Positions 11,772 to 29,348 of a stretch of 64,000 nucleotides of DNA are shown in pieces (the stretch's first letter is position 1; the number at the start of each line of letters is the position of its first letter). A program made the translations under genes and the position numbers. The stretch comes from Clostridia bacterium (GTDB lineage Bacteria > Bacillota > Clostridia > UMGS1883 > UMGS1540): the NCBI GenBank assembly GCA_045533905.1, contig JAZSIR010000001.1, positions 7,617 to 71,616 on the forward strand, written 5' to 3'. Under the pieces are notes generated by a model. That model ran no database searches and was not told the origin of the DNA. It saw only the letters and a program-made list of their open reading frames with translations.

Positions 11772-11804
11772 AAATAATAATAATTTAGAAAGAGGTAATT
11801 TATA

Positions 11805-12101
11805 ATGACTATCGAAAAGAACTTAAGCGGTACAGAACTTAATGTAAAGGTGTCAGGCAGACTTGACACAACAACCGCACCGGAACTTGAAGCAGAAGTT
11901 ATGGGCGCAATCTCAGGTGTAACAAAACTTGTACTTAACTTTGAAGCACTTGAGTACCTTTCATCTGCAGGACTCAGAGTACTGCTTCAGGTACAAAAGA
12001 TAATGAACAAGCAGGGTGAGATGATTATTAAGAACGTAAACGAAACAATCAATGAGATTTTTGAAGTAACAGGATTCATTGATATTCTGACGATTGAATA
12101 A
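11805..12101 (+). CDS. STAS-domain anti-sigma-factor antagonist, copy 2.
   Basis: 98 aa. LEYLSSAGLRVLL. Paralog of 6385..6681. Confidence 0.8.
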   Translation: MTIEKNLSGTELNVKVSGRLDTTTAPELEAEVMGAISGVTKLVLNFEALEYLSSAGLRVLLQVQKIMNKQGEMIIKNVNETINEIFEVTGFIDILTIE

Positions 12102-12144
12102 GGTGAACTCCAATGAACCAAACAAGTATTGGAGGGATATACCT

Positions 12145-13995: not shown

Positions 13996-14402
13996 AAGAA
14001 CTAACCATTGCCGCAACAGTAGAAAACATTGAAACTGTAACGGACTTCGTAAACGAACAGCTTGAAGCGTTTGATTGCCCTATGAAAGCACAGATGCAGA
14101 TCGACATTGCCATCGACGAGCTTTTCGGCAACATTGCGCACTATGCGTACAATCCCGATGTAGGAGAAGCGACCGTTCGCGTGGAGGTTACCGAAGATCC
14201 TCTTGCCGTGGTAATCACCTTTATTGATAACGGCGTACCTTACGATCCTCTTGCAAAAGCCGAGCCCGACACAACGCTTTCCGCAGAGGAAAGAGACATC
14301 GGTGGTCTTGGCATCTATATGGTGAAGAAGTCTATGGACGACATTGCCTATGAATACAAAGACGGACACAACATTTTGAAAATCAAGAAGAATTTGAATT
14401 AA
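13992..14402 (+). CDS. Anti-sigma regulatory factor / serine protein kinase (RsbW/SpoIIAB-like, GHKL ATPase).
   Basis: 136 aa. N-box DELFGNIAHYAY, G1 FIDNGVPYDP and G2 GGLGIYMV are all intact. Translationally coupled to the phosphatase (ATGA). Confidence 0.75.
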   Translation: MKELTIAATVENIETVTDFVNEQLEAFDCPMKAQMQIDIAIDELFGNIAHYAYNPDVGEATVRVEVTEDPLAVVITFIDNGVPYDPLAKAEPDTTLSAEERDIGGLGIYMVKKSMDDIAYEYKDGHNILKIKKNLN

Positions 14403-14415
14403 AGGATTATTGCAA

Positions 14416-16602
14416 ATGAAGAACTTAAACAAAAAACTTTTGACCTTCGGTATAGTTTTGTGTATGCTTCTCTCGTGTTTTTCGGGAGTGGTATTTGCAA
14501 AGGATATCGAAACAATCGTTATTCTTTATGAAAACGATGTTCATTGTGCAGTAGAGGGTTATTCTAAACTTGCAGCAATGAAAAATGAATTATCAGAAGA
14601 TTATGAATATGTAGGCGTTGTATCCTCCGGCGACTTTGTTCAGGGCGGAACTCTTGGTGCAGTTTCTCGTGGTGAATACATAGTAAGCCTTATGAACCTT
14701 GTGGGATATGATGCCGTAACACTTGGTAATCACGAATTTGATTATAAGCTCCCACGCCTTGATGAACTTGCAGAATTGATGAACACCGAACCTATCTCTT
14801 GTAACTTTCAAAAGATAGGTGAAACTGAATCATATTTTGAGCCGTATTCCATCGTAACCTACGGTGATGTGGATATAGCATATATCGGTATCACAACACC
14901 ATCTACATTGTCCTCATCGTCACCTGCACAGTTTAAGGGTGAAAATGGTGAGTATATTTACACATTCAATGTAGATACCCTTTACGATGTGGTACAGGCA
15001 AGTATTGATTCTGCAAAGGAAGATGGTGCTGATTACATAATCGCCCTTTCTCATATTGGATATGAAGAAGATGAGCAGTATGAGGATGTTGTTGACTTAA
15101 TTGAAAACACATACGGATTTGATGTTGTTCTTGATGCTCATTCTCACTCTGTTATTGAAAATATGAAGCTGACCGATGAGGGCGGAAATGAGGTTGTTCT
15201 TACCTCAACAGGCACAAAGTTTGAAAATATCGGCAAGCTTACAATTTCAGGCGGTGAGATAACAACAGAGCTTATAGAAACTGAGAACTACACAAACACA
15301 GATACAACCGTTGATGCAAAACTTGCGGAAATAAACGAAGCATATTCTGCTCTCGGTAATCGCAAGATTGGTGAAAGCGAAATAGAGCTTATCACGAACG
15401 ATGCGGACGGAAACCGCCTTGTTAGGACAACAGAAACCAATCTCGGCAATTTGTGTGCAGATGCAATTAAAACAGTAACGAAAGCTGATATTGCCTATGT
15501 AAACGGCGGCGGAATCCGTGCACCGATTGAAATTGGCGAAGTATCGTTCAATGACATTTTTAGTGTTTTTCCATTTAACAATCAGATTGTTGTAGCAGAA
15601 ATGACAGGTCAGAAAATACGCGATATGCTTGAAATGTCACTTATGAATTATCCGGCAGAAGATGGCTCTTTCCCTCATGTTGCAGGACTAACATTTTCGG
15701 TTAATAAATCCATTCCAACATCTGTTAAAACAGACGAAAACACAGTTTTTACAGGCGTTGACGGTGAGTATAGAGTTTATGATATTAAAGTATTAAATGA
15801 AGACACAGGCGAATACGAGCCTATTAAACTCGACGGAACATACTCCTTTGCAAGCTTCAACTACTTTGTTTTAGACCAAGGCGGCGGTATGAGTATGTTT
15901 GACGGTGTAAAAATATTAAAGAATGACGGAATGCTTGATGTTGAAGCGTTAGAAACATACATCACAGAAAACCTTGGCGGTGTTATCGGCGAAGAATATG
16001 CAGAGGTAGATAACAGAATCAACTTTACAGACGGTGAAGATGCACTTAATAAGTTCACCGATTTGTCCGATGATGCTTGGTATAGTGATTCTGCAAAGTA
16101 TGTTTTGGAAAACGGTCTTATGAAAGGCGTAACAGATACCACCTTTGCACCAAACGAAAACTTAACAAGAGCAATGCTTGTTACAGTTCTTTACCGTGCA
16201 GAAAATGAACCTGCCACAAACCGCAGCATTCCTTTCTCTGATGTTGATACGGGTGCTTACTATGCAAGTGCAGTTTCTTGGGCAAAGCAGAACGGTATTG
16301 TAAACGGTGTAACAGAAACAGAATTTGCACCGAATGACAATATCACCCGTGAACAGATTGCGGCAATTATGCACAGATACGCACAGTACAAGGGTTATGA
16401 TGTCAGCGTAGGAGAAAACACAAATATTCTTTCCTATGACGATTTTGACAGCATTTCCGAGTATGCAATAGCTTCTATGCAGTACGCTTGCGGCAGCGGC
16501 TTGATTAAGGGTAAATCAGAAAGCACCCCCAATCCGCTTGATAATGCTACAAGAGCAGAAATAGCAGCAATACTTCACAGATTTATTGAAGTGAATAAGT
16601 AA
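14416..16602 (+). CDS. Cell-surface 5'-nucleotidase / bifunctional metallophosphatase with C-terminal SLH domains.
   Basis: Signal peptide, then a calcineurin-like N-domain (ILYENDVHC..GDFVQG..GNHEFD) and a 5'-nucleotidase C-domain. Three SLH-like repeats follow at the C-terminus (FTDLSDDAWYSDSAKYV..; FSDVDTGAYYASAVSWA..). The ORF track starts at a TTG at 14410; the ATG at 14416 is preferred. Confidence 0.8.
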   Translation: MKNLNKKLLTFGIVLCMLLSCFSGVVFAKDIETIVILYENDVHCAVEGYSKLAAMKNELSEDYEYVGVVSSGDFVQGGTLGAVSRGEYIVSLMNLVGYDAVTLGNHEFDYKLPRLDELAELMNTEPISCNFQKIGETESYFEPYSIVTYGDVDIAYIGITTPSTLSSSSPAQFKGENGEYIYTFNVDTLYDVVQASIDSAKEDGADYIIALSHIGYEEDEQYEDVVDLIENTYGFDVVLDAHSHSVIENMKLTDEGGNEVVLTSTGTKFENIGKLTISGGEITTELIETENYTNTDTTVDAKLAEINEAYSALGNRKIGESEIELITNDADGNRLVRTTETNLGNLCADAIKTVTKADIAYVNGGGIRAPIEIGEVSFNDIFSVFPFNNQIVVAEMTGQKIRDMLEMSLMNYPAEDGSFPHVAGLTFSVNKSIPTSVKTDENTVFTGVDGEYRVYDIKVLNEDTGEYEPIKLDGTYSFASFNYFVLDQGGGMSMFDGVKILKNDGMLDVEALETYITENLGGVIGEEYAEVDNRINFTDGEDALNKFTDLSDDAWYSDSAKYVLENGLMKGVTDTTFAPNENLTRAMLVTVLYRAENEPATNRSIPFSDVDTGAYYASAVSWAKQNGIVNGVTETEFAPNDNITREQIAAIMHRYAQYKGYDVSVGENTNILSYDDFDSISEYAIASMQYACGSGLIKGKSESTPNPLDNATRAEIAAILHRFIEVNK

Positions 16603-16620
16603 ATAGCAAAATGGCACTAA

Positions 16621-16650
16621 GGAGTGAGTCGAAAGGCTCACTCCTTTTAC
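16621..16650 (+). terminator. Rho-independent terminator ending the 16.6-kb plus-strand gene block.
   Basis: Stem ggagtgag/ctcactcc with an 8-nt loop, followed by TTTT. Confidence 0.7.
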
Positions 16651-16784
16651 ATACCCTCATATTAAAATATGGTCCACATTAATCAAAGAAAAGGACTTTG
16701 AAAAAACTTCGTAGACTTATGTCATCTTCTGTGGTATGTTTGTGTTGCCGAAAAGGTAAATACAAATTTAGGAGATGAAATTTT

Positions 16785-17339
16785 ATGAAGAAAAAAGTAT
16801 TATGTACGGCATTGGCAGTGACTATGTTGCTAACAACAACTGCATCGGCAACTGCAAAACCTTGGTGGCTCAGTAAATACCGAGTAACTTTCGACAATGA
16901 ACTTGGAATCGTAGGAAATGTAACCTTAACCTTCGCCTCAGACGGCGGTAGCTTTATCAGGCCAATAACCAAAAGATATGGCGAGAGCATCAGTCTTGAA
17001 AGTTATGTACCAACAAAATACGGTTACACATTCAAAGGATGGTTCACAGATCCAAGAACAAAGCAAAATCAGGTAACAACATTCAAATTCACAAAGCCTG
17101 ATGTGCTTTACGCTAAGTGGCAGCCTAACCCACAGGAGCCTATAAATCCGAATGACGAAATCATAGCAAAAGATACCTGCTACCTCACGGACGAAGAAAC
17201 AAAAATACGAAATGAAATTATAGAAGAAAAGAATAAGACATACATCGAAGGCTTCGGTTATGTAGCTCCAAGTAAAACAAAAACAATCATCGTAGACTCA
17301 GGCGGTGATATAAATAAAATGGTCGGCACAATGGAATAA
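16785..17339 (+). CDS. Secreted hypothetical protein with a Listeria-Bacteroides-type repeat.
   Basis: Signal peptide MKKKVLCTALAVTMLLTTTASA. The YGYTFKGWFTDP motif is typical of the Flg_new/List_Bact repeat. AT-rich context. Confidence 0.5.
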   Translation: MKKKVLCTALAVTMLLTTTASATAKPWWLSKYRVTFDNELGIVGNVTLTFASDGGSFIRPITKRYGESISLESYVPTKYGYTFKGWFTDPRTKQNQVTTFKFTKPDVLYAKWQPNPQEPINPNDEIIAKDTCYLTDEETKIRNEIIEEKNKTYIEGFGYVAPSKTKTIIVDSGGDINKMVGTME

Positions 17340-17355
17340 AAAGAATAACTTAAAT

Positions 17356-17396
17356 GGCGGTATGCTCGAGATTACCTCGAACATACCGCCGTTTTG
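17356..17396. terminator. Hairpin terminator between convergent genes.
   Basis: ggcggtatg ... cataccgcc stem followed by TTTT. Confidence 0.6.
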
Positions 17397-17400
17397 TATC

Positions 17401-18486
17401 TTATATTTCTTTCAGTAGCCTGATGGCTTCATCAAGTGAAATTTCTCCGGACTCGCCACGATCTTTAATATCCATAGCCAATGTACTCTGTTCAAGCCAC
17501 TTGGAATAATCCAATCCGCTTGATTTTCGCTTAGCCAATCGATCGTAAGTTCTGTCATATTCTTTTTTTATTGGAGACCTGAATTCATCTGAGTTTTCTT
17601 TTTTGTGAGCACCTACCTTGCTGCATGTCCTGCCTTTCGGATCGTTAGGAGCCACTCTGTTGCAATAGTGGGTATCATGACCTGTTGGCAAAAGAAAAAA
17701 ACGTTTGCAATTATGACATCTTTTCGGTGAGTGTTTAACATTTAATCCTCTGAACAGGTCTGAATTTAAAAAGCCGCCAATAGACCTGAAAATGACTCTT
17801 TCTGCCAATATATAATTTTCTTTGCAATCAGGATCAGGACAAGTGACATATTCAATATTTGCCGGCATTTCTGCTTTAAATGTAATTGCAGGATATTTCG
17901 GGATAAGAGATTCAAGATTTTGCTGTAATTCGCTATTATTCAGAAACTGATATATTGCGTGTGCAAAATGTGCAGGGGTTCTTGCAGTAACATTTTCTAT
18001 ATATAAATCAACAAATGCAGATGCATATATTTTAAAAATCAGTATTTCATCATTGATTGATAACAAGCCTACTAAAATTCTGTTTAATATGCTTCTGCTC
18101 TCGCTTTTGGGATGGGTTTCATATATTTCCCTGAACTCCGATATATATCTTCTTTTATCAAATTCAAAGCGGTCATATAAAGGCAGGCTAAGGATAACAT
18201 CTAATGCCTTGCTTAGATATGGAGCAAAGCCATCAAAACTGCATGATGATATAATCATTAAATTTGATTCGTATTCCCCATATAGTTTTTCTAGAAACGC
18301 TTTCCTTAAATTTGATAATACTGTTTTCAAATTATCAAGCTGTTCGTCAGATAGCTCCAGAATTTCAGTTGAAATCTGACCAAGCGAGACCTTTTCTTTT
18401 CCGATAATGACATAATCTTTATAAAATTGTGCCGTTATATATCCAAAATCAAATGGTTTTTCATCTAAACTTTTTATACTTGCCAT
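17401..18486 (-). CDS. Hypothetical protein with a Cys/His-rich, probably Zn-binding, C-terminal region. Island-encoded.
   Basis: The ORF track gives 17401..18507. Start chosen at MASIK, which has a GGAAGTGAG RBS. The C-terminal motif cluster is CPDPDC..CHNCKRF..HDTHYCNRV..C. The region is very AT-rich. Confidence 0.5.
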   Translation of the reverse strand: MASIKSLDEKPFDFGYITAQFYKDYVIIGKEKVSLGQISTEILELSDEQLDNLKTVLSNLRKAFLEKLYGEYESNLMIISSCSFDGFAPYLSKALDVILSLPLYDRFEFDKRRYISEFREIYETHPKSESRSILNRILVGLLSINDEILIFKIYASAFVDLYIENVTARTPAHFAHAIYQFLNNSELQQNLESLIPKYPAITFKAEMPANIEYVTCPDPDCKENYILAERVIFRSIGGFLNSDLFRGLNVKHSPKRCHNCKRFFLLPTGHDTHYCNRVAPNDPKGRTCSKVGAHKKENSDEFRSPIKKEYDRTYDRLAKRKSSGLDYSKWLEQSTLAMDIKDRGESGEISLDEAIRLLKEI

Positions 18487-18549
18487 ATACTCACTTCCAC
18501 GATACATATTTTATAATTCCACTACTTTTGAAAATGGCGGCAAAATCGA

Positions 18550-18578
18550 TTGACGCACATCTTGCGATATGTTAGAAT
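18550..18578 (+). promoter_or_regulatory. Sigma-70-like promoter for the recombinase operon.
   Basis: TTGACG, then 17 nt, then TAGAAT. About 240 nt of leader follow before the first ORF. Confidence 0.5.
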
Positions 18579-18794
18579 AGCCACACAACAAATTATACAC
18601 GATACAAATAAAAATGTCAATCGTGGAAATTGAACCTTGAAAACTTAATAGCCGAACCGCAAGGGATACATTCTCGGGGAAGTGTCGCCACGATATGAGC
18701 GCACCAAGAGATGAAAATACGATGTCGGTGTCAAACAAGGCAGGAGGTCAGGAACTGTAGCGGAAGTCGGTGCTAAAATAATTATATGAAGGGA

Positions 18795-18959
18795 ATGATG
18801 TTTATGAAATCTATGAATATAGAGATAGAAAAGGCTGTTGCCAAGGCTATGATTTTAAACCTGTTAAAAGCAAACCTTATAAGCGATGAGGAAGCAAACA
18901 AGCTGATAGATAAAGCCTTTGATGCATTAAGCGAGCCTTTAATAGAAAACTCAGCATAA
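18795..18959 (+). CDS. Small hypothetical protein of 54 aa upstream of the recombinase genes.
   Basis: MMFMKSMNIEIEKAVAKAMILNLLKANLISDEEANKLIDKAFDALSEPLIENSA. It is below the ORF-track size cutoff, and the call rests on an open frame only. Confidence 0.3.
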   Translation: MMFMKSMNIEIEKAVAKAMILNLLKANLISDEEANKLIDKAFDALSEPLIENSA

Positions 18960-19051
18960 TCTTTTAGTTTTTGTTTAATATTTGTCTGGATATATTAAGT
19001 TATTTGTGGTATTGTTGTCTTGAAAAAAATATGGAAAGGAGTGTGAGGCTG

Positions 19052-20593
19052 ATGTCAGAAGTAATTGTTATCCAAGGAAATCATACAAAAAACGAACCTG
19101 TGTTAAAGCGAGTATCCGCTTATGCCAGAGTAAGCTCTGCTTCAGACGAACAGCAATACTCCTTCCATAATCAGGTTCAGCACTTTACAAGCTTGATACA
19201 GGGAAATCCCGATTGGAAATATGTAGACATATATGCCGATGAAGGTGTAACCGGCACAAGAGAGGACAAACGCAGTGAATTCAACCGAATGATAAGAGAT
19301 GCCGAGGATGGACTGATGGACATTATCATTACAAAATCAGTCTCACGCTTCGGCAGAAATGTTTCAGAGTGCCTAAGAACAGTAAAACATCTCAAGGATA
19401 TTGGAGTTACCGTGATATTCGAAGAGGAAGGTCTTGATTCGGGAAAGCCTGCTGACTTTACAATGATATCTGTAAAAGCAGCAATGGCAGAACAGGAATC
19501 AATCTCTACTGCTGAGAACGGCAGAATGGCAAACCGCCAGAGAATGAAGATGGGTACATTTGTTCAAAGCAATCCTCCAATCGGTTATACATTAAACGGC
19601 ACGGAATTCGAGGTTAACGAGGAACAAGCCGATGTTATCAAACGAATATTTGCCGAATACCTGTCAGGAAGTGGTACAAGCAAAATTGCCGATGGGCTTA
19701 TGAAAGATAAAATTCCCAATAAGTATGGCAAGGTGCATTGGACACCGCAAAGTGTCAGCTATATCATAAATAACCCAAGATACAAAGGCGGTGCCCTGTT
19801 CCAGAAATCCTTTAAGACAGGATTTCCGTATAAGAAAAAGAAGAACACAGGCGAACTGCCGATGTATTATGCAGAGGATGCCAATATCCCCATAGTAAGT
19901 GCAGAAGACTTTGACAAAGCAGCCGAGCTTATGCAGACAAGGCGTGAAAAGCATGCCCAGGAAAACAACGAGAATGCAAGTATCTTTGCAAAGAAGATAT
20001 ATTGCAGGCACTGCGGTTCCACTTATCGATATAAAAATGGTACAGATACATGGGTATGCAGAACACACGATAAAGGCACAGACAAATGTCAGGCAATGCC
20101 TGTAAGCGAAGAAATGCTTAAAAAGGCATTTGTTCAAATGTATAATAAGCTGAAAGCAAATTATGAGCATATCCTTCTCCCGTTCTTAACACAGGTAGAG
20201 GCTATGAAGATAAACAAGGCAGAGCAAGATAGAATTGCTGATATCAACATGCAAATAGCACAGAATACAGAGCAGGTTTTATCGCTCCGAAGACTAAAGA
20301 GTCAGGAGCTGATAGAGCCTGCTTTCTATATTCAGGAGCTTAACCGCTTTGATAAGCAAACAATGGAACTTCGGAAAAAGAAAAATGCCATACTGCACAA
20401 CAACCGATATGATGACATTATCTCAAAGACCAGAAAAATCATAAGAGAAATGGAATCGGCTTGTGCAATAGGCAAATTCGATGCTGATAGCTTCAAAAAT
20501 CTTGTAAGCAGAATTGAAGCAGATAATGAAATAATAACCTTTATCCTCATAAACGGAATGGGGCTTGAGGTTAGCAAAAAGGAGGTGTTATAA
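19052..20593 (+). CDS. Large serine recombinase (resolvase catalytic domain, recombinase domain, zinc ribbon, coiled coil).
   Basis: Catalytic motif AYARVSSASDEQ and the resolvase core (DVYADEGVTGT..SRFGRN). The ORF track begins at 18971. A start at 19052 (MSEVIV) or 19031 is likelier; the upstream extension is AT-rich and lacks an RBS. Confidence 0.85.
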   Translation: MSEVIVIQGNHTKNEPVLKRVSAYARVSSASDEQQYSFHNQVQHFTSLIQGNPDWKYVDIYADEGVTGTREDKRSEFNRMIRDAEDGLMDIIITKSVSRFGRNVSECLRTVKHLKDIGVTVIFEEEGLDSGKPADFTMISVKAAMAEQESISTAENGRMANRQRMKMGTFVQSNPPIGYTLNGTEFEVNEEQADVIKRIFAEYLSGSGTSKIADGLMKDKIPNKYGKVHWTPQSVSYIINNPRYKGGALFQKSFKTGFPYKKKKNTGELPMYYAEDANIPIVSAEDFDKAAELMQTRREKHAQENNENASIFAKKIYCRHCGSTYRYKNGTDTWVCRTHDKGTDKCQAMPVSEEMLKKAFVQMYNKLKANYEHILLPFLTQVEAMKINKAEQDRIADINMQIAQNTEQVLSLRRLKSQELIEPAFYIQELNRFDKQTMELRKKKNAILHNNRYDDIISKTRKIIREMESACAIGKFDADSFKNLVSRIEADNEIITFILINGMGLEVSKKEVL

Positions 20594-21457
20594 ATGGCAA
20601 ACCGTTACCTTGCATTCGGCTACAAAATAGCTGACGGCAAACTTTGTGTTGAAGAAACTGAGGCAGAACTTGTAAAGGCGACCTTTACACTGTATGCGGC
20701 AGGAAAATCCTACAGCCAAATTGCTGAAAGATTTACCTTAAGCGGAATCAGATACAACATTGATTTTGACAAATGGAATAAAAATATGGTAAAGCGGATA
20801 ATTGAAAACGATAAATATATCGGCAGGAACGGTTATCCGCAAATCATAGAAGAAAAGCTCTATAACAAGGCGAACAAGACAAGAATTTCAAAAGTCATAA
20901 ATAAACCGCCTGAAAAAGCAGAGCTTGACAACTTCCTTCGGTCTCATTCGGAATGCCCGGTTTGCAGCTCCCCGATAAAAAGGCAGAATCAATGCTACGG
21001 CGAGAATAGGTCTGTGGCATATAAATGTACCAATTCTGTATGCCCGGCGAAATCTGTTAAAGAGAATCGACTTGTAAATCTCATAACGGAATTGCTTAAC
21101 GAAATTGCAAATGATTTAAGTCTTGCAGATGAACCTGTTATAACCGCAATTCCCGATGATGAACTGACAGACGATATGGCAAACGATATCTACATAAAAA
21201 TGCTGACGGAATACGATAAGGATGAAGTGCTTGCAGACATATATGAGCTTGCAAAATTCAAATTCCGAAACAGTATCAAAACAGATATGAGTGCAGTTAC
21301 AGAAAGAATAAAAAAAGAGCTTTGCAAGTATGGGATACTTACAGAGCCTCATCTTCCGCTTATGCAGAAAATTATATCAAAATTCTATGTAGGCGGTCAG
21401 GAAGAGCTTTCTATACTGCTTACCAATGGAAAATTAATAACAAGGAGTGTGAATTAA
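20594..21457 (+). CDS. Recombinase-domain / zinc-ribbon protein that lacks the N-terminal serine-recombinase catalytic domain.
   Basis: Recombinase-domain signature (YLAFGYKIADGKLCVEETEAELVKATFTLYAAGKSYSQIAE) and a Cys ribbon (CPVCSSP..C..CTNSVCPAK). It has its own AAGGAGGTG RBS and is not a frameshifted continuation of the upstream gene. Confidence 0.7.
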   Translation: MANRYLAFGYKIADGKLCVEETEAELVKATFTLYAAGKSYSQIAERFTLSGIRYNIDFDKWNKNMVKRIIENDKYIGRNGYPQIIEEKLYNKANKTRISKVINKPPEKAELDNFLRSHSECPVCSSPIKRQNQCYGENRSVAYKCTNSVCPAKSVKENRLVNLITELLNEIANDLSLADEPVITAIPDDELTDDMANDIYIKMLTEYDKDEVLADIYELAKFKFRNSIKTDMSAVTERIKKELCKYGILTEPHLPLMQKIISKFYVGGQEELSILLTNGKLITRSVN

Positions 21458-21459
21458 AG

Positions 21460-23064
21460 ATGGCAAATGTAATCGAAATACCTGCAACAAAATCATATTT
21501 CGGGCATAGTGCAAAGCGAGTCCTGAATGTGGGTGCTTATGCGAGAGTCAGCACCGAGGCGGAGCAACAAGCAAAAAGCTTTGAAACTCAGGTTGAACAC
21601 TATACCAAACTGATCAAAGAAACTACCGGTTGGAAATTTGTAGATGTATATGGCGATGAAGGTATCAGCGGAACCTCTATATACAACCGACCAGAGTTTC
21701 AGAGAATGATGAATGATTGCAGAAAAGGCAGGCTGGACTTAATAATAATTAAATCAGTATCAAGATTCGGCAGAAATTCCGCCGAGAGCTTACAATGTAT
21801 CAGAGAACTTAAGGATTTAGGTGTCGGAGTAATATTTGAAAAGGAAGGTATCAATACCCTCAACTATACGACCGAGATGTTCATTGCACTGCATACCATA
21901 TTCGCTCAATCCGAAAGTGAGTCGATGAGTGAAAATATAAAAATGGGCAGAAGTTACAGATACCGTGAGGGTAAGTGCTGCTATAACTTTAACGGAGTAT
22001 ACGGCTTCAGTCAGGACGATGAAAAAAACATATCAGTGGAAATCGGCAAAGCAATCAATGTCAGGTTCATCTTCGACTGCTTCATAAAAGGTATGAGCAT
22101 AGAACAAATTGTCAATGCACTTGCCGAAAGAGAAATCCCCTCTCCGAGAGGTAAAGAAAGATGGTCGCCCGGCTCAGTGGAAAGAATACTTAAGAATGAA
22201 AAATATGCAGGTGATGTTCTGACCTCAAAGACATTAACTCTTGATCCAATCTCAAAGAAAAAGGTAAAGAACACAGGTCAGGCTCCGCAGTATTATATCA
22301 GAGACCATCATCCGCCAATCGTAGAACGAGAACTGTTCGACAGTGTACAAGAGGAAATTAGCCGACGTGGATGTATCAAAAAGTTTGATAAAAAACAAAG
22401 CTATGGAAAATACAGCGGGAAATTTCCTTACAATGACTTAATATTCTGTGGTGAGTGCGGTGCCAAATACAGACGAACAGAATGGAAAACCCGTAGCGGT
22501 GATAAGAAATATGTGTGGCGATGCCTGAACAGAATTCAGAACGGACAAGATTGCTGTAAGAATTCTCCTTCCATCAACAATAACTTTATGAATGAGGTTA
22601 CGCTCGAAGCTATCAATGCGATATACACAAGTAGAAAAAGAGTAAAGGACATATTAAAAAGCTCAATCGCCTCTCTACTCGGGGATACCGAACAGCCAAA
22701 GATAAGTGCAAATATGGAAAAGCTTAATCTAATGAGCGACAGAATGCGTGAGGCTATATACCAAAATGCTAACGGTGAAATATCAACGGACGAGCTTGAC
22801 AGAATATGTCTGGAAGTAAAGATGGAATCGCAAAGACTGCGTCAAGAGAATAAGGAATATGAGATGGAGAGAAAGATGAAATCAACCGAGTCATCTAAGC
22901 TGAAGCTTATCTTCAAAGCCATTGATGGTATGGAAGATAAGGTGAGCGAGATTGATACACCTCTCATTCGAAGCATCATCGAAAGATACGAGGTTGTGTC
23001 AAAGAAAAAGATGATCATATGGTTCATCGGCGACATACCTTATGAGGTTGACCTACCGAAATAA
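21460..23064 (+). CDS. Large serine recombinase.
   Basis: AYARVSTEAEQQ, then VYGDEGISGT..SRFGRN, plus the recombinase domain and zinc ribbon. The start at 21460 follows an AAGGAG RBS. The ORF track's 21322 start overlaps the upstream gene. Confidence 0.85.
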   Translation: MANVIEIPATKSYFGHSAKRVLNVGAYARVSTEAEQQAKSFETQVEHYTKLIKETTGWKFVDVYGDEGISGTSIYNRPEFQRMMNDCRKGRLDLIIIKSVSRFGRNSAESLQCIRELKDLGVGVIFEKEGINTLNYTTEMFIALHTIFAQSESESMSENIKMGRSYRYREGKCCYNFNGVYGFSQDDEKNISVEIGKAINVRFIFDCFIKGMSIEQIVNALAEREIPSPRGKERWSPGSVERILKNEKYAGDVLTSKTLTLDPISKKKVKNTGQAPQYYIRDHHPPIVERELFDSVQEEISRRGCIKKFDKKQSYGKYSGKFPYNDLIFCGECGAKYRRTEWKTRSGDKKYVWRCLNRIQNGQDCCKNSPSINNNFMNEVTLEAINAIYTSRKRVKDILKSSIASLLGDTEQPKISANMEKLNLMSDRMREAIYQNANGEISTDELDRICLEVKMESQRLRQENKEYEMERKMKSTESSKLKLIFKAIDGMEDKVSEIDTPLIRSIIERYEVVSKKKMIIWFIGDIPYEVDLPK

Positions 23065-23074
23065 CGGCAGGTCC

Positions 23075-23106
23075 TTTTTACAAGAAATTTTCAAAAAGGC
23101 CTTGTA
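23075..23106. repeat. Imperfect inverted repeat downstream of the last recombinase gene. Candidate recombinase binding or att site.
   Basis: tttacaag..(16 nt)..cttgtaaa. A further cttgtaaa-like copy and a 10-bp perfect palindrome (gaataaatct / agatttattc) lie at about 23127-23155. Confidence 0.35.
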
Positions 23107-23246
23107 AAAAATATAGTTTTATGGTAGAATAAATCTTGTAAAAGAGATTTATTCTGCCTTTGGAATTGATAAGGGTAAAACCTTGAAACCCGCTTGAAAT
23201 CAAGCAAAAATTAATGTGGCAGTAAAATCATATCGTTCTTACACGT

Positions 23247-23280
23247 CGGAGCAAAGTACGCTTTGCTCCGTTTTTCTTTT
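23247..23280 (+). terminator. Rho-independent terminator.
   Basis: ggagcaaag-tacg-ctttgctcc stem followed by TTTTTCTTTT. Confidence 0.65.
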
Positions 23281-23432
23281 ATAAGAAAAACATTCGCCTA
23301 CTTCCTCTCCCCTCCTTTTCGCAAAAGGTCACGTTCAAGTCGGCTATTCGCTTGTAAACGCGCTCATAACGCCTTTTTTCACTACCAACCTTTTGCGAGT
23401 GTGCCTTCGGCACGATCTGTATTGTTATGTAT

Positions 23433-23470
23433 AAAAAGGGCAGATTTTATAGAAATCTGCCCTTTTTCTT
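23433..23470. terminator. Bidirectional hairpin terminator at the 3' end of the polyvalent-protein gene.
   Basis: A-run, then gggcagattt-tata-gaaatctgccc, then T-run. Confidence 0.6.
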
Positions 23471-23509
23471 ATTTTTCTATTTGCTTTTTCACAAGGCTTT
23501 CGTCCCATC
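23469..23509. repeat. Direct repeat copy A. Duplicate of the 3' end of the acyl-CoA synthetase gene.
   Basis: About 87% identical over about 40 nt to 27576-27616. Both copies encode ESLVKKQIEK-stop, and all four differences are synonymous. Confidence 0.7.
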
Positions 23510-26500
23510 CATATTCTTTAATATATGTATCTGCCTCTTTTAGGGCCTTTTTGTCTGTGTAGGCATCATACGAGAAGATACCGTCCTCGACCATTTTCTC
23601 AATCGTCGGTAGCGCTTCGTCAGGGGTTGCCTTGGCTTCAAGGATTGTGCGAACGGTCTGCGATACTTTCTTGTTTTTTCCTGTTTTCTGAGGCACTTGT
23701 ATGTCTCTGTGCGGTTTTTCTCCGCTTGGGATTGCGCCGTACCTTTCTATAAGCTCGTTGTAAAGTTCAGTACTTACGTGCCCTTTCTCTACATACTTTG
23801 CCAACTTGCGTTTGGCGGCCTCGTCCCCTTTTTGCAAGCCTTGAATGGTGGCAACATATTCCCTCTCCGAGAGCATGCCTTTGAGAGAAAAATCACTCTT
23901 GACTTTTTGTTCGGGATGTGCTACACTCTTGTTAAGGTCAGCACTTGTGTGCCCTGCCTCAGCATCTGTATTGATGCTTGCAGGGAAAGTGTTGGCCGTT
24001 TCTTTTTCCCAAACCCTGTGCACCCAGAATTTGTTTTTCTGCGGTGATTTTTTAATATCTAGGCGGATGGTAACGTCTTTTCCGTCGACCTCCAGCGTAT
24101 GCTCGATGTACGCAAATTTTTTATTATCGCTGTTTCCGTATTGGTTTTGAACATTATCAGCAACAAGACGTCCTTTCTCGATGATTTCTGGTAATCTCCT
24201 TATCGTAGCAAGCTTTGTAATTTTCTTATTCTTACCGAGACGTGCATAATTTTTCAAATTAAATGTCTCGTCGATTCCGCTTTTATTTGTTTCAATAATC
24301 ATACCGGAATCTTCGTTGACGTCTACTCTTTTTCGCTTCTCGGTATCTGTAAAAAAGTTTTCCCCGAGAAGAGTTTTTAGCACTTGTCTTTGCACGTGAA
24401 TGTAATCCCCAGGCGCGTCAATCCCAAAACTTTCAAAGGTGCTTTTAACAAACTCGTCCGAATAGTTGCTCTCACGCCTCGCGGGGACGCTTTCAACCGC
24501 TTTTATATAGTCGGAGTCTTTGAGAGAAAAATCACTCTTGACAATTTTTTGGGGGTGTGATATATTATCCCTAGAGTAGTTCTCTTTAACGTCTTGGACG
24601 TACGCCTTGCGGATTTCATGCAAATCAGCGAGATATTGAGAACTACTCTGTTTTTTATGTATAGCATCAATCAAGCCATACAGGTTTGGAATACTATCTA
24701 TCCCCGTTTTTACCATTTGCTTGTTAATAAGAAGTTTTTCTCTGTTATATTCCGTTGTTATTGCTTCGACATAATAAATCACATCACCCGGCATTACTTT
24801 TACATAAATCAAACCCGGATCACCATTTGCGTTTGTTTTGTAAAATACTTTATCGTAATTTTCAACAATATACGGAATTAGCTCAACATCTGCTTCGGTA
24901 ACAGGGTATTTTTCATTTGTTTTTTTGCCGTGGGAGTTCTTGATATGCCGAATATCATTATCGCGCAACGCATGAGAATAACCCGATATATCCACATCAG
25001 AAGATACTTCATTTATCAAATCCCTTCCAACCTTTAGGAATTTAATGTAAGATTTTTCATTATCGTTTAGATAGGCTTTTTCTATGTACCGGTTGATGTC
25101 AGATTGCGTAACCTCAAAATCAAACACTTTATCCGCATATCCTAATGTCTTCAAGGAAAAGTCCACACCGCCCTCTGGAGCGGTGTTCTTTTGTCCGTCT
25201 ATTCTCTTGAGTGAATAGCTCTTTTCTTCCGATTCTCTGAAGAGATTTTCGAGGACATTTCTAAAAGCTCGGCTTCCGTTGCGTTGGGATTGTCTCGGCA
25301 AAACTCCAACATTTTGATTGTGTCTTCCGCCTCCCAGGTTTCGAAGATTATTTTGACTACTGTTGACATTTTGCAACCAACTTCCTTGAGATACCCTTTG
25401 AGCAAAACTTGGTTTTCCGTTAATACCCTTGCCATCTTCTTCGTCCTCCAATAAATCAATTAAAATATCTAATTCAAAGCTTCCGTCATCGCCTTTTCTT
25501 TCGTAGAGGATTGTAGGATGTTCTGGGGTTTCCGTGCTGTATATGGCAAACAAAGCTTCTCCGTCAATTCTGCCTTTATACCAACATCCAACCGTATCTG
25601 CGATTCTTTTAGGTTCGTGATTCTCAACCTGCCGAATCCAGTCTTCCAGCATTTTGAACTGCGTTGCGTTCAAATCTGTGCGCCATTTTAACGAATAGCT
25701 TGTATTTCCATTATACTCCGCTCCCATGTTTTTTTCAAGAGTATCGGAGGAATTCTCTTTTTTGAGAGAAATTTCATTCTTGACAGAATTTGAATTTTGT
25801 GGTATATTGTCATTAGAAACACTATCCCGTGTAGCCTGTCTTTCGGCAGGCAATCTGGTCATTCTTTCGAGAAGACCAATCTCGGCGGTAGTGTTTTCTT
25901 CAATCCCAACAATATCGTATAGGTATTTGTTGCCATCAGAAGCATTCCTAATCAACAGCTCGACATCAAAAGCTCGTACCTTTGTTATCTTTCCTCGATT
26001 ATCTTTTATCGGGAAAGCAAAGGAATTAGCATAACGATACATACCATACTTCGCATCCTTATTATGTGTGTGCTGCGTCTTTTCCCACCTGCGATTCGTA
26101 GCTGTTTCTATCAATTCTCCAAAGCCGTCAACAGCTTTATTTTTACCTCTTGCGGCGGTGCGATTAACCCTACGGAGAAAAGTGGTGTACTTCGAATGCG
26201 TGTACTCTTGCGGCAAATCCTCGCCAATGTAGACCTTCTGCCCACTTTCTATAATCGTATAAACTTCGCCTATATGTTGTGCAATGTAGCCTGCAACAGC
26301 TTGATGGCTGTTTAATTGCTTGTTGGTCAGTCCACTTTCTTCAATCCATACAAAGCTCTTGCCATCAACATTTTTCAAGCTAAAGTCTACGCCGTCCTCT
26401 GTGTCGGTGTTTTTTTGTGCCTCTGCGGTCTGTTTAGTATGAGCCTTTGCTTCCACCGCCTTTTTGTTTTCCACAGCCTTTGCGACAGCAGTCTCAAACA

Positions 26501-27566
26501 TATCGCGAAGACTTGTGATTTCGTCAAGCTTTGGCTGAATCTTTGCTTTTTCTTTGGCGCTCTTGCCTGCAAGAAAATCACGAATTTTCCTAATCATCTC
26601 GGCAAGATACTCAATGTACTTCCGCAAGCCTTGCTTTGCCTTTTCGTCCGTGCCGTTGATGATGCTGTCAATAGCCTTATGGAATCGCGCCTCATCGTTG
26701 CCGTAAAGGTAGAGAATGTTGTTTGCAGAAACTTCTTCCATTGCCTTTGCAAGAGATATTTCCTCGCCCTGTGCGGCGTATGCACTTCGTTTTTGGTCTG
26801 CAACGGTAAATATAGACGGCTCATTGCCGGCAATGTGATTATACATCGCATACACAAACGCGCTGCCTTCTTCAGGGGCAAGGTCGACAACTCTATGCAG
26901 CGCTATTTCGTGCGCCGCATGGAAGACAATAGATACCTTCTGCCCGCCCACTTCTCTTTCAAAATCGAAGTCAATAGGCACTTCCCCCGTTTGCCTGTTG
27001 TACTCGGCGTTGCCTTTTAGGCCCTTTGCCATATACGCCTTTACGCCAAGTCCTTCTGCTAAAAGATTGAGCGTTGCAACCTCGCTTTGTTTAACATCGC
27101 TCGGCAGGTTTTCCGCAAGAACGCCGCTTTCCATATTTACAACTGCATTTCTAAACCTTTCTTTGGCGGCGAGGTCTTCCATTTTTCTGTCCATCTGCCC
27201 TGCCGTGAACGCATCTTCTTGTGCTTTGGATATAAATACGTCCTTGCCTTTTTTAACATTCAAGTCCGGTTGCTTAAAGCCTGTCATGTACGATGCCTTG
27301 ACCTCTTCCAGCACTTTGTTAAAGGTTGCCCCGTCTGCATTCGAATAATTGGCCACAAGTTTCGCCCCTTCCTCGCCAAACCCCGTGACCTTTCTTACCT
27401 CGTCGGCGGTTATCTCCACGCCGTTCTCGGTGAGGACATCTAGTGTTTCGCTGCTTACGATTCCTCTTCTGCGGTTTTCAAGAAGGGTGTAACCGTCTAC
27501 TCGATTTTTTCTACCGCGCCCATTGCCTTCCTTATACGCAAAAAGGCTGTGAAACCTAGGTTTCAC
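23469..27566 (-). CDS. Giant multi-module protein of the 'polyvalent protein' type found in conjugative elements and phages, with repeated module-boundary motifs and nuclease/toxin-like modules.
   Basis: 1365 aa with a GTG start. The D/Y-FSLK motif recurs four to six times (VDFSLKNVDG, VDFSLKTLGY, SDFSLKDSDY, SDFSLKGMLS, YSLKWRTD, YSLKRIDG). Between the recurrences are segments such as HALRDNDIRHIKNSHGK..VIYYVEAITTEY, with a small RNase/RelE-like flavour. No similarity to housekeeping families. It ends with the same 9 aa (SLVKKQIEK) as the adjacent synthetase. Confidence 0.55.
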   Translation of the reverse strand: MKPRFHSLFAYKEGNGRGRKNRVDGYTLLENRRRGIVSSETLDVLTENGVEITADEVRKVTGFGEEGAKLVANYSNADGATFNKVLEEVKASYMTGFKQPDLNVKKGKDVFISKAQEDAFTAGQMDRKMEDLAAKERFRNAVVNMESGVLAENLPSDVKQSEVATLNLLAEGLGVKAYMAKGLKGNAEYNRQTGEVPIDFDFEREVGGQKVSIVFHAAHEIALHRVVDLAPEEGSAFVYAMYNHIAGNEPSIFTVADQKRSAYAAQGEEISLAKAMEEVSANNILYLYGNDEARFHKAIDSIINGTDEKAKQGLRKYIEYLAEMIRKIRDFLAGKSAKEKAKIQPKLDEITSLRDMFETAVAKAVENKKAVEAKAHTKQTAEAQKNTDTEDGVDFSLKNVDGKSFVWIEESGLTNKQLNSHQAVAGYIAQHIGEVYTIIESGQKVYIGEDLPQEYTHSKYTTFLRRVNRTAARGKNKAVDGFGELIETATNRRWEKTQHTHNKDAKYGMYRYANSFAFPIKDNRGKITKVRAFDVELLIRNASDGNKYLYDIVGIEENTTAEIGLLERMTRLPAERQATRDSVSNDNIPQNSNSVKNEISLKKENSSDTLEKNMGAEYNGNTSYSLKWRTDLNATQFKMLEDWIRQVENHEPKRIADTVGCWYKGRIDGEALFAIYSTETPEHPTILYERKGDDGSFELDILIDLLEDEEDGKGINGKPSFAQRVSQGSWLQNVNSSQNNLRNLGGGRHNQNVGVLPRQSQRNGSRAFRNVLENLFRESEEKSYSLKRIDGQKNTAPEGGVDFSLKTLGYADKVFDFEVTQSDINRYIEKAYLNDNEKSYIKFLKVGRDLINEVSSDVDISGYSHALRDNDIRHIKNSHGKKTNEKYPVTEADVELIPYIVENYDKVFYKTNANGDPGLIYVKVMPGDVIYYVEAITTEYNREKLLINKQMVKTGIDSIPNLYGLIDAIHKKQSSSQYLADLHEIRKAYVQDVKENYSRDNISHPQKIVKSDFSLKDSDYIKAVESVPARRESNYSDEFVKSTFESFGIDAPGDYIHVQRQVLKTLLGENFFTDTEKRKRVDVNEDSGMIIETNKSGIDETFNLKNYARLGKNKKITKLATIRRLPEIIEKGRLVADNVQNQYGNSDNKKFAYIEHTLEVDGKDVTIRLDIKKSPQKNKFWVHRVWEKETANTFPASINTDAEAGHTSADLNKSVAHPEQKVKSDFSLKGMLSEREYVATIQGLQKGDEAAKRKLAKYVEKGHVSTELYNELIERYGAIPSGEKPHRDIQVPQKTGKNKKVSQTVRTILEAKATPDEALPTIEKMVEDGIFSYDAYTDKKALKEADTYIKEYGWDESLVKKQIEK
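27548..27565. repeat. Perfect 18-bp palindrome gtgaaacc-TA-ggtttcac at the island/synthetase junction, overlapping the polyvalent gene start.
   Basis: Self-complementary with a central TA dinucleotide. It encodes MKPRFH on both strands. Confidence 0.6.
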
Positions 27567-27575
27567 ATCCTTTTC

Positions 27576-27616
27576 TTATTTCTCGATTTGCTTTTTTACG
27601 AGGCTTTCGCCGCAGT
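27576..27616. repeat. Direct repeat copy B. The actual 3' end of the acyl-CoA synthetase gene.
   Basis: See copy A. Confidence 0.7.
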
Positions 27617-29204
27617 ATTTTTCGCGGAGTTTCGGTTTTTCGATTTTGCCGGTGGGGTTGCGCGGTACATCGGCGAAGATGATGCGGCGCGGTCTTTTAT
27701 ATCGTGGAAGTGCCTGACAAAACGCTTCGATATCTGCTTCCGTGCAGGTGCTGCCGGGCTGCAGTTCGATAATGGCCGCGGCAATCTCGCCGAGTCTGTC
27801 ATCCGGAAGGCCGATAACGCCCACGTCCTTAATCTCGCGGTTTGTGCGGAGAAAATCTTCAATCTGCACAGGGTAGAGGTTTTCGCCGCCTGTGATGATA
27901 ACGTCTTTTTTGCGGTCTACGAGGAAAATGAAGCCATCCGCATCTTCCATGGCCATATCGCCTGTGTAGAGCCAGCCGTCGTGCAGTACCGCATTTGTGG
28001 CCACCTCATCGCGATAATAGCATTTCATAACGCCGGGGCCTTTTACTGCAAGTTCCCCCACTTCGCCACGAGAAACGGTGCTTCCGTTTTCGTCAATAAT
28101 CTTCGTTTCCCAAAGATGACCGGCAATACCGATGGCGCCCACCTTATGTATATTCTCTACGCCAAGATGTACACAGCCGGGGCCGATAGATTCGGAAAGC
28201 CCGTAATTGGTATCATATGCGTGATTCGGGAAACGCTCACGCCAGCGCTTTATAAGGCTCGGCGGTACCGGCTGTGCGCCGATATGCATGAGCCGCCAAG
28301 AAGCAAGGTCATATTCTTCTATATTGACATCGCCGCGGTCAATCGCATCGAGAATATCCTGCGCCCACGGCACGAGAAGCCATACGATAGATGCCTTTTC
28401 CTCGGAAGCGGCTTTTAAAATCCACTCCGGCTTTACGCCGCGAAGAAGCACTGCTTTGCCGCCGACCAGAAAGCTTCCGAACCAATGCATCTTCGCGCCG
28501 GTATGATACAGCGGCGGAATGCAGAGGAACACATCGTCCTTCGTTTGCCCGTGGTGTTTATTTTCCGTAATGCACGAGGATATGAGGCTTCTGTGTGCAT
28601 GCAAAATAGCCTTGGGGAAGCCTGTGGTGCCGGAAGAAAAGTAGATGGCCGCATCGTCCTCTTCCGAAAGCGGTGCATCCGTAAAGTCTGCACACATTTC
28701 GGGGAGGCGCCCGTTATAATCTACGGCAAAATCGGGTGTATCCTCACCCACAAAGATATATTGTTTCACGCCGGGCATATCGCCCTTGGCCGCGGTTACG
28801 CGTTCTGTAAACTCAGGGCCAAAGATCAAAACATCCACCTCAGCAAGACCCGAGCAATAGGAAATTTCATCTGCTGCATAGCGGAAATTCATAGGCACGG
28901 CCAGTGCGCCCGTTTTGAGAATACCAAAATAGATGGGAAGCCACTCGAGGCAGTTCATAAGAAGGATTGCAACCTTATCCCCCTTCTTGATGCCAAGCGC
29001 TGTGAGCATATTGGCAAAGCGGCAGGCGCTTTCGTCAAACTCGCGCCATGTGATTTCGCGGCGCCCTGCATTTTTTGCGGCCGCTTCCACTAGCTCAAAA
29101 TCGCGCCAAGCCTGCTTTTCACGCACCTCGGGGCTGATTTCTACAAGCGCCGCACAGCTACCGTACTTCCTTGCATTTTCTCTTAAAACCTCAGTAATAA
29201 CCAT
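27576..29204 (-). CDS. AMP-dependent acyl-CoA synthetase / long-chain fatty-acid-CoA ligase.
   Basis: AMP-binding motif YFSSGTTGFPKAILHAH, then YHTGAKMHWF, then GWLYTGD..VDRKKD. Start placed at the ATG with a GGAAGGA RBS (MVITEV); the ORF track begins 8 codons earlier. Confidence 0.8.
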   Translation of the reverse strand: MVITEVLRENARKYGSCAALVEISPEVREKQAWRDFELVEAAAKNAGRREITWREFDESACRFANMLTALGIKKGDKVAILLMNCLEWLPIYFGILKTGALAVPMNFRYAADEISYCSGLAEVDVLIFGPEFTERVTAAKGDMPGVKQYIFVGEDTPDFAVDYNGRLPEMCADFTDAPLSEEDDAAIYFSSGTTGFPKAILHAHRSLISSCITENKHHGQTKDDVFLCIPPLYHTGAKMHWFGSFLVGGKAVLLRGVKPEWILKAASEEKASIVWLLVPWAQDILDAIDRGDVNIEEYDLASWRLMHIGAQPVPPSLIKRWRERFPNHAYDTNYGLSESIGPGCVHLGVENIHKVGAIGIAGHLWETKIIDENGSTVSRGEVGELAVKGPGVMKCYYRDEVATNAVLHDGWLYTGDMAMEDADGFIFLVDRKKDVIITGGENLYPVQIEDFLRTNREIKDVGVIGLPDDRLGEIAAAIIELQPGSTCTEADIEAFCQALPRYKRPRRIIFADVPRNPTGKIEKPKLREKYCGESLVKKQIEK

Positions 29205-29348
29205 GTATACCGTCCTTCCGTACTGCATAATGTACTATTTATACAGTATACCGCAAAAAAAGGAGTTTGTAAATACCCAAAATTTCTTTTCGCATACTTT
29301 TTCTGTTTGTGCACAAGATAAGAAAAGTATATAAAAAGGAGAACCCCA

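Follow-up and report, generated by a model that had tools for sequence, protein, structure and literature searches.

Results

The Locus and Its Duplicated Gene Terminus

We analyzed a stretch of 64,000 nucleotides (the window) from contig JAZSIR010000001.1 of a Clostridia bacterium, in which a gene for an acyl-CoA synthetase is followed, on the minus strand, by a 4.1-kb segment that holds a single large open reading frame (ORF) for a polyvalent protein and ends in a second copy of the synthetase gene's own terminus. We propose, with moderate confidence, that the segment is what decay has left of an integrative element once inserted site-specifically at the 3′ end of the synthetase gene. From 27.6 to 64 kb the window is ordinary chromosome (lgt, mutL, murC, genes for SLH proteins and others). 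The features that carry the argument are the following.

27576..29228, minus strand: acyl-CoA synthetase ORF with AMP-binding and AMP-binding_C domains, the host gene, given as the longest ORF
27571..27614, minus strand: repeat copy B, the synthetase terminus (codons 27576-27608 plus GAAAAGG), in an attL-like position
27540..27574, minus strand: terminator hairpin 1 (inverted repeat I17, terminator scan), followed by a T-run and containing GTG 27566
27497..27533, minus strand: probable native start of the polyvalent gene, with ribosome-binding site AAGGAAGG at 27526-27533, ATG at 27523 and an 8-codon frame that ends in TAG at 27497-27499
23469..27566, minus strand: polyvalent-protein ORF of 1365 codons, with PBECR3 and LPD3 domains (Pfam) and a mosaic G+C (guanine plus cytosine) content, running into copy A
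23464..23507, minus strand: repeat copy A, the second synthetase terminus (codons 23469-23501 plus GAAAAAGG), in an attR-like position
23433..23467, minus strand: terminator hairpin 2 (terminator scan), of the same length and with the same AAAAAGG/CCTTTTT base as hairpin 1 but with a different upper stem
23244..23425, plus strand: host intergenic block, opening with a tRNA terminator (23247-23270) and homologous to the flank in contigs L082 and L122

The two copies, 23464-23507 and 27571-27614, lie in direct orientation and are identical at 38 of 44 nucleotides, compared with 26 of 44 for the runner-up match to either of them on both strands of the whole 64 kb. When up to 3 mismatches are allowed, a 24-mer finds only these two copies in the window, and it was matched 0 times in 100 shuffles. 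The repeat on which the original prediction was built is thus real and far above chance. A third copy, as would be expected of a tandem array, was not found in the window.

Both copies encode ESLVKKQIEK followed by TAA, and the four differences between them within these 10 codons (CTC/CTT, GTA/GTG, ATC/ATA and GAG/GAA) are all synonymous, an outcome with a probability of 0.0006-0.0016 for four random substitutions. The original prediction had counted 11 recurring codons with four synonymous and no non-synonymous changes; this description stands for 10 codons plus the TAA but not for the eleventh, the codon before ESLVKKQIEK, which differs non-synonymously (GGC, Gly, versus GAC, Asp). Past the stop codon, both copies share GAAAA(A)GG and then the AAAAAGG/CCTTTTT base of a 35-nt terminator hairpin, while the upper stems of the two hairpins are mutually unrelated. 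Since the similarity continues through the stop codon into the hairpin bases, the duplicated unit comprises the terminus of the gene together with the terminator and measures about 75 nt; it is not a similarity that fades over about 45 nt, as had been supposed. The free energies of the hairpins are -17.8 kcal/mol (z-score -4.8) for hairpin 1 and -20.3 kcal/mol (z-score -7.2) for hairpin 2.

Which gene does the repeated peptide belong to? The closest homologues of the synthetase (77-86% identity) all end in ...YCGES[L/V/I]VK[K/R]QIEK, and this shared ending identifies ESLVKKQIEK as the native C-terminus of the synthetase family. (The database call of the window's synthetase, P0001, is 100% identical to the ORF listed above and starts 8 codons later.) The synonymous-only divergence in turn implies that each copy has evolved as the functional end of a synthetase. 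Copy A matches the end of the synthetase gene in contig L001 at 34 of 37 positions; the synonymous variants of copy B recur in a decayed copy of the terminus in L122, with 20 of 24 positions matching, a score that none of 300 shuffles attained.

The Polyvalent ORF between the Copies

The 4.1-kb segment is, as first described, nearly all one ORF, which fills the span between the copies and whose only recognizable domains are PBECR3 (1.3e-12) and LPD3 (6.4e-10). No integrase, excisionase, transfer gene or recombinase of any kind lies between the copies. On the strength of these domains and of 85 homologues with ART-PolyVal, MuF_C and LPD domains, the ORF encodes a polyvalent protein sensu Iyer et al. 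2017, present here in an incomplete copy. It resembles the polyvalent proteins described in that work (PMC5512222) in its PBECR3 and LPD3 domains, its modular, mosaic build and its repeated linkers, and differs from them in its early end, in final codons that come from a host gene and in a frameshifted start.

The early end is apparent from the comparison with every long homologue (2000-2400 amino acids), all of which go on past a GW-x-x-S-[LF] motif into ...DW...V.KG.VSK...MGWALYNNA and hundreds more residues. At GWDESL the window protein switches instead to VKKQIEK and a stop, so that its last residues and its stop codon are supplied by copy A. Because the long homologues continue beyond this point, the ORF in the window ends prematurely, by reading into the copy of the synthetase terminus. 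Polyvalent homology extends right up to copy A, and the missing remainder of the gene, sought on the premise that a neighboring island (see below) had split it, is absent from the rest of the window.

Polyvalent ORFs end or are split within one and the same stretch of about 70 residues (...ATPDE...GW-x-x-S-L) in the window (23502-23520), in L133, in L125 and in the proteins P0123 and P0127. In L133 the gene is split into two adjacent ORFs exactly at that stretch (7289/7290), and L125 holds a 749-amino-acid fragment (~12060). The stretch seems to be a border between modules at which such genes readily break or recombine.

The composition of the gene is uneven along its length, with a G+C content of 47-50% over the first ~400 codons, 35-44% in the middle, where the PBECR3 and LPD3 modules lie, and 45-48% in the last domain, a mosaic that is consistent with the shuffling of modules between sources. 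Three 57-nt direct repeats within the gene (23880-23936, 24519-24575 and 25761-25817) encode inter-domain linkers (...VK[SN][DE][FI]SLK). Read on the antisense strand, two of the three contain sigma-70 promoters close to the consensus (TTGACA-17 nt-TATATT and an upstream TG), and in the third the promoter is weaker; these motifs could be chance by-products of the linker peptide, sites of recombination in module shuffling, or real antisense promoters.

In its exact form the polyvalent protein is unique among 5.8 billion proteins (one member, one contig). A scan of IMG/VR with it gave one partial match, and PHROGs none. Searches of phage and plasmid databases gave one weak match and none, respectively. 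Some of the long homologues (P0130, P0124 and P0186) are found in prophage-like contigs together with holin, lysin, an ImmA/HTH repressor and a tyrosine integrase. In one such prophage, L133, a mimic of a tRNA 3′ end followed by a terminator lies beside the integrase gene and constitutes its phage attachment site (attP), and this arrangement of target 3′ end plus terminator has the same design as the block duplicated in our window. The closer homologues of the N-terminal module (P0123 and P0122) stand alone amid housekeeping genes, and one lies at a distance of 78 nt from a tRNA-Met. No repeats flank P0123 or P0122, and no repeats of an upstream gene's terminus surround the solitary polyvalent genes in L081, L082, L114 and L125. 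Related polyvalent genes therefore do occur at other loci without such a repeat, a finding that the original prediction had named in advance as one that would count against it. Solitary chromosomal polyvalent genes have been described as being retained by their hosts from integrated elements (Iyer et al. 2017, PMC5512222), and the solitary polyvalent remnants among the housekeeping genes of relatives fit this statement.

The Start of the Polyvalent ORF and Its Reading Frame

It is literally true, as originally claimed, that the polyvalent ORF lies in the frame of the synthetase and begins three codons after its TAA, and the copies are spaced by 4107 nt, or 3 x 1369. The GTG in question (27566), however, is located inside terminator hairpin 1, and it is available as an in-frame start because the ORF extends through the synthetase terminator, where no stop codon happens to intervene. 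The database protein P0121 has been called from this GTG, a start inside a terminator that should serve as a warning for annotation.

A more plausible start lies just downstream, where a strong ribosome-binding site 11 nt beyond hairpin 1 precedes the ATG at 27523. The frame of this ATG reads A-M-G-A-V-E-K, and that of the long ORF, one base over, K-N-R-V-D-G-Y; homologues at the same point read AAREAVERKNQVDGY (P0123) or AAREVVARKN (P0122, P0144 and P0124). It is at a run of six A residues, 27505-27510, that the coding sequence drops out of the frame set by this ATG. An insertion or deletion in this run probably disconnected the gene from its start, or else the loss of frame may reflect a homopolymer sequencing error instead of a real inactivating event.

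Apart from the TAA, the synthetase and polyvalent frames are continuous. We identified no recoding signal, and the connecting stretch crosses a stable terminator. With its own ATG out of frame and the GTG within the terminator, the principal argument for a built-in fusion or coupling falls away, and the read-through, fusion or translational-coupling layout suggested at first is not upheld. There is a second case of a shared frame among relatives. In L114, whose synthetase is 79% identical, a different polyvalent ORF of 2197 amino acids (ART-PolyVal; 11624-18250) starts right after the synthetase terminator, again in the synthetase frame with no stop codon between the two; the contig ends 99 bp past this ORF.

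These observations bear on whether the segment could be an active minimal cassette, consisting of the polyvalent ORF and an attachment block of ~75 nt, moved in trans by a helper integrase and expressed from the host gene through read-through of the terminator or of the stop codon, or through translational coupling. The compactness of the unit (block, 11 nt, ribosome-binding site, ORF, block), the spacing by a multiple of three, the ORF that is open back to the TAA, the lack of any promoter-like site between hairpin 1 and the ribosome-binding site, and the in-frame ORF of L114 would all suit such a cassette. We nevertheless regard it as improbable: the protein is known from one contig only, its homologues are located elsewhere and lack repeats, the ATG at 27523 does not share the frame of the ORF, whose in-frame GTG is enclosed in a hairpin of -17.8 kcal/mol, the ORF stops where all long homologues go on, and the window offers no helper integrase for the site, the nearby serine recombinases serving another. 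Nor are two in-frame cases significant, as chance alone would give them with a probability of about 1 in 9. As a description of the segment as it now stands, the intact single-gene mobile cassette of the original prediction is contradicted by the early end of the ORF, the frameshifted ATG and the lack of a recombinase between the copies. The broader proposition that polyvalent genes travel as integrase-less mini-cassettes of an ORF and a ~75-nt block, relying on the integrase of a helper phage or integrative and conjugative element (ICE) and on read-through for expression, is kept alive by the tidy edges of the unit and by the unrelated polyvalent ORF that follows the L114 synthetase terminator in frame, and we would give it slightly less credence.

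The 3′ Side of the Synthetase Gene in Relatives

In L001-L003, with synthetases 82-83% identical to that in the window, synteny is seen upstream of the synthetase and ceases exactly at the stop codon. In the closest relative, L113 (86%), the order is synthetase, terminator, tRNA-Arg. In L122, the decayed synthetase terminus mentioned above sits between a phage-type MuF-barnase toxin/barstar pair and a block of tRNA-Asp flank; the alignment is too weak to claim a common left boundary for this copy of the terminus. In the window, copy A adjoins host DNA, in that 23244-23415 corresponds to the sequence after tRNA-Asp in L082, and its contiguity with this host flank marks copy A as the displaced side. 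Taken together, and with the polyvalent ORF after the synthetase in L114, these arrangements suggest that the synthetase once faced tRNA-Asp and that phage-type cargo has reached the synthetase end more than once.

Several results weigh against an integrative-element remnant. We found no complete parent element that has this attachment site, and scans of IMG/VR with the terminus peptide, with hairpin 1 and with the terminus plus GAAAA all returned 0 matches. Synthetase homologues (~69% identical) do occur in IMG/VR, on L141 (8242-9561) and about 12 similar viral contigs, but these L141-type prophages, which have a tyrosine integrase and an ImmA/HTH repressor, sit at a tRNA-Ser two genes downstream and not at the synthetase end. 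A recombinase or polyvalent gene adjoins the synthetase in 0 of 80 species representatives. The empty site, in which the synthetase is directly followed by the flank of copy A and for which the original prediction had suggested looking in other strains, was not found, and the downstream DNA of the closest relatives is unrelated. Codon usage is uninformative as to which half of each copy belongs to the host. Finally, the remnant is unusually tidy, with ~11 nt from hairpin 1 to the ribosome-binding site and an ORF that abuts the repeat exactly, which would be rare under random deletion.

Could the arrangement have arisen without site-specific integration, through a Campbell-type single crossover with a circular or transduced fragment that bore a foreign synthetase terminus, or from an old partial tandem duplicate or paralogue of the synthetase whose body was later replaced by phage DNA? 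Divergence that is only synonymous is compatible with two alleles of a genuine synthetase end or with two paralogues of it, copy A resembles the terminus of another species (34 of 37 in L001), neither an integrase nor a parent element has come to light, and other AMP-binding paralogues lie near the gene in relatives. Those paralogues, on the other hand, are only 47-49% identical, and 75 nt at 86% identity, broken by a 21-nt unrelated stretch, make a poor substrate for RecA. We could trace no second synthetase body upstream of copy A, where polyvalent homology reaches the repeat itself, and L122 and L114 point to the repeated arrival of phage-type cargo at the site. Such an origin seems to us unlikely, although it deserves more weight than the other alternatives considered here.

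The Neighboring Serine-Recombinase Island

On the far side of copy A the window contains a group of genes for large serine recombinases, with the following features.

16645..23243, plus strand: island backbone and right end (Pfam, comparison with L125 and L115), separate from the repeat-bracketed segment
16785-17339: Flg_new gene of the island (Pfam)
17401-18507, minus strand: DUF6076 gene (Pfam)
18971-20593: rec1, serine recombinase (Pfam)
20594-21457: rec2, serine recombinase (Pfam)
about 21460-23064: rec3, serine recombinase (Pfam)

The middle recombinase gene has no catalytic domain. At the nucleotide level this conserved backbone is 92.7% identical to the sequence in L125; for L115 the figure is 82%, and each of the two alignments stops exactly at 23243, where the island ends in ...ATCGTTCTTACA. 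Relatives of rec3 that are 83-97% identical occur in many contigs, in which the left side is conserved and the right side is different each time: the position of the island end is identical in at least 20 contigs, and all right flanks differ, each opening with a terminator hairpin. (When metagenomes were scanned with rec3, no relative exceeded 44% identity; the closer ones came from a protein search.) In the window, the ~180 nt to the right of 23243 are homologous to L082 11058-11224, directly after the CCA end of tRNA-Asp, and also to the flank of a related island in L122. The end of the conserved sequence at 23243, together with the tRNA-Asp flank beyond it, indicates that the recombinase genes belong to a separate island, inserted at the 3′ end of tRNA-Asp. 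Scans of the window for tRNAs and against Rfam gave no matches, the tRNA-Asp itself lying outside the window. Our first model, in which copy A was the attachment site of the recombinases, was rejected, since at least 20 related contigs put the island end at 23243.

It is nonetheless conceivable that the neighboring recombinases made or moved the segment, as in a composite resembling the staphylococcal cassette chromosome (SCC), with a recombinase-less cassette in tandem with a ccr-bearing one. Three serine-recombinase genes do lie 400 bp from copy A, and tandem arrays are known for SCC and for accretions of ICEs and cis-mobilizable elements (CIMEs) (PMC5704250). The conserved island end, however, is 225 bp from copy A and is found with different flanks in the contigs just mentioned, the target of the island is the CCA end of tRNA-Asp, and its end sequence, ...CGTTCTTACA, is unlike either edge of the repeat block, of which, as noted above, the window holds no third copy. 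We judge this explanation very unlikely.

The G+C content changes sharply at this point, from ~40% over 1 to 23.2 kb to ~50% to the right, and the window derives from a contig of the metagenome-assembled type (145,981 bp); in addition, contigs with related islands often break inside the recombinase genes. An assembly artifact, which might be suspected on these grounds, appears extremely unlikely. The step coincides with the true island boundary at 23243, on which ground a chimeric assembly was rejected as its cause, and neither repeat copy lies beyond that boundary, both being on its host side. An assembler working at k=141, furthermore, cannot be misled by 44 nt repeated at 86% identity, and a random misjoin would not pair a gene with a synonymous-variant copy of its own terminus.

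Three further observations concern the island and its flank. The low-G+C island spans at least 23 kb (window 1-23243), with nucleoside/purine-salvage-like genes as its cargo here, glycosyltransferases in L115 and a MobL relaxase in L125. In L125-L128, which hold the closest relatives of the island (rec3 cluster at 97%), a truncated LPD3 polyvalent gene (L125 11784-14221) has its 3′ end ~190 bp from the island, in an unrelated genomic context, a second instance of an island end adjoining a polyvalent remnant. Downstream of tRNA-Asp, a non-coding block of ~170 nt is conserved in the window (23244-23425), L082 (11058-11240) and L122 (11784-11975). RNAalifold, applied to these only three sequences, predicts a 10-bp helix between distant segments (CGCAAAAGG...CCTTTTGCG) together with helices inside it, and compensatory changes are seen at 18 pairs; the block is a candidate structured RNA and has no Rfam match.

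Discussion

Our analysis of the synthetase locus revealed a direct repeat of the gene terminus with divergence restricted to synonymous positions in the peptide native to the synthetase, a polyvalent ORF between the copies that ends early and has lost the frame of its own start, no recombinase between the copies, and an adjacent island with an independent boundary. On this basis, we propose the following model. The parent element, most likely a temperate phage and possibly a conjugative or mobilizable element with a polyvalent gene, would have carried, as do many elements directed at gene ends, its own copy of the target's last ~10 codons and terminator, a copy that would descend from real synthetase ends given the synonymous-only divergence. 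Integration at this site, presumably by a site-specific integrase, would have left the synthetase intact, with copy B and hairpin 1 on the attL-like side, and the second copy with hairpin 2 would have been displaced to the far end, the attR-like side, beside the old downstream flank and tRNA-Asp; the two copies would accordingly have served as attachment sites. The integrase and nearly everything else would have been lost later. Two routes for this interior loss can be envisaged: a deletion at the short identity GA(C)GAAAGCCTT, common to the polyvalent domain boundary and the terminus, or recombination between repeated polyvalent modules, in a gene that has three 57-nt linker repeats and a mosaic G+C content. 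What remains of the polyvalent ORF is probably a pseudogene, with at best weak expression through terminator read-through.

How does this arrangement compare with known systems? SCC elements, including SCCmec, lie at the 3′ end of rlmH (orfX) in staphylococci, bracketed by direct repeats that include the gene terminus, and recombinase-less pseudo-SCC units exist in arrays. The segment described here is likewise found at the 3′ end of a conserved gene between direct repeats that hold the gene terminus. Unlike in SCC, the unit contains no ccr-type recombinase, and the serine recombinases beside it belong within a boundary of their own and are directed at a tRNA; the gene targeted by our segment is that of an AMP-binding acyl-CoA synthetase and not rlmH; and the repeat is longer (~75 nt including the terminator) and diverged. 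The idea of a 3′-end-targeting element with a replacement terminus, with which the original prediction had compared the locus, is thus borne out insofar as the repeats behave like junction repeats, but its analogy with SCC fails on the recombinase. Integron cassettes offer no closer parallel, as the window contains neither a tyrosine integrase nor attI, and the hairpins are ordinary terminators followed by T-runs.

A nearer likeness is found in CIMEs, which are defined as decayed remnants of ICEs or of integrative and mobilizable elements that keep attL and attR (PMC5704250); an example is CIME19258/CIME302, located at the 3′ end of fda in Streptococcus thermophilus. As in CIMEs, direct repeats with the 3′ end of the target gene stand on both sides, no genes for integration or transfer lie between them, and the site is the end of a housekeeping gene that stays intact. 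The present case differs in that the parent appears phage-like and not ICE-like, no related intact element accompanies it in tandem, the island next to it employs a different site and a different type of recombinase, and the remaining gene reads into the displaced terminus. Cryptic prophage remnants at the 3′ ends of genes or tRNAs, with an attP that carries a replacement 3′ end, are similar in two other respects: homologues of the cargo reside in prophages with tyrosine integrases, and the attP of L133 combines a mimic of the target 3′ end with a terminator. In contrast to such remnants, no integrase, repressor or structural gene is left here, and no phage with this attachment site was found.

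If our interpretation is correct, the locus would be an ordinary but clean example of the decay of an integrative element, a familiar genomic scar and not a new type of cassette. The target gene would keep a working end, the displaced end would survive as a fossil, and a leftover effector-type gene would borrow the last codons, stop codon and terminator of that fossil. The by-products of the analysis are perhaps more useful, namely a widespread island that has three serine-recombinase genes and stops sharply at a tRNA site, and the non-coding block, with its covarying pairs, that follows tRNA-Asp. For a poorly known group of Oscillospiraceae-like bacteria of gut or rumen, the model would make the 3′ end of the synthetase gene a probable attachment site for integrative elements.

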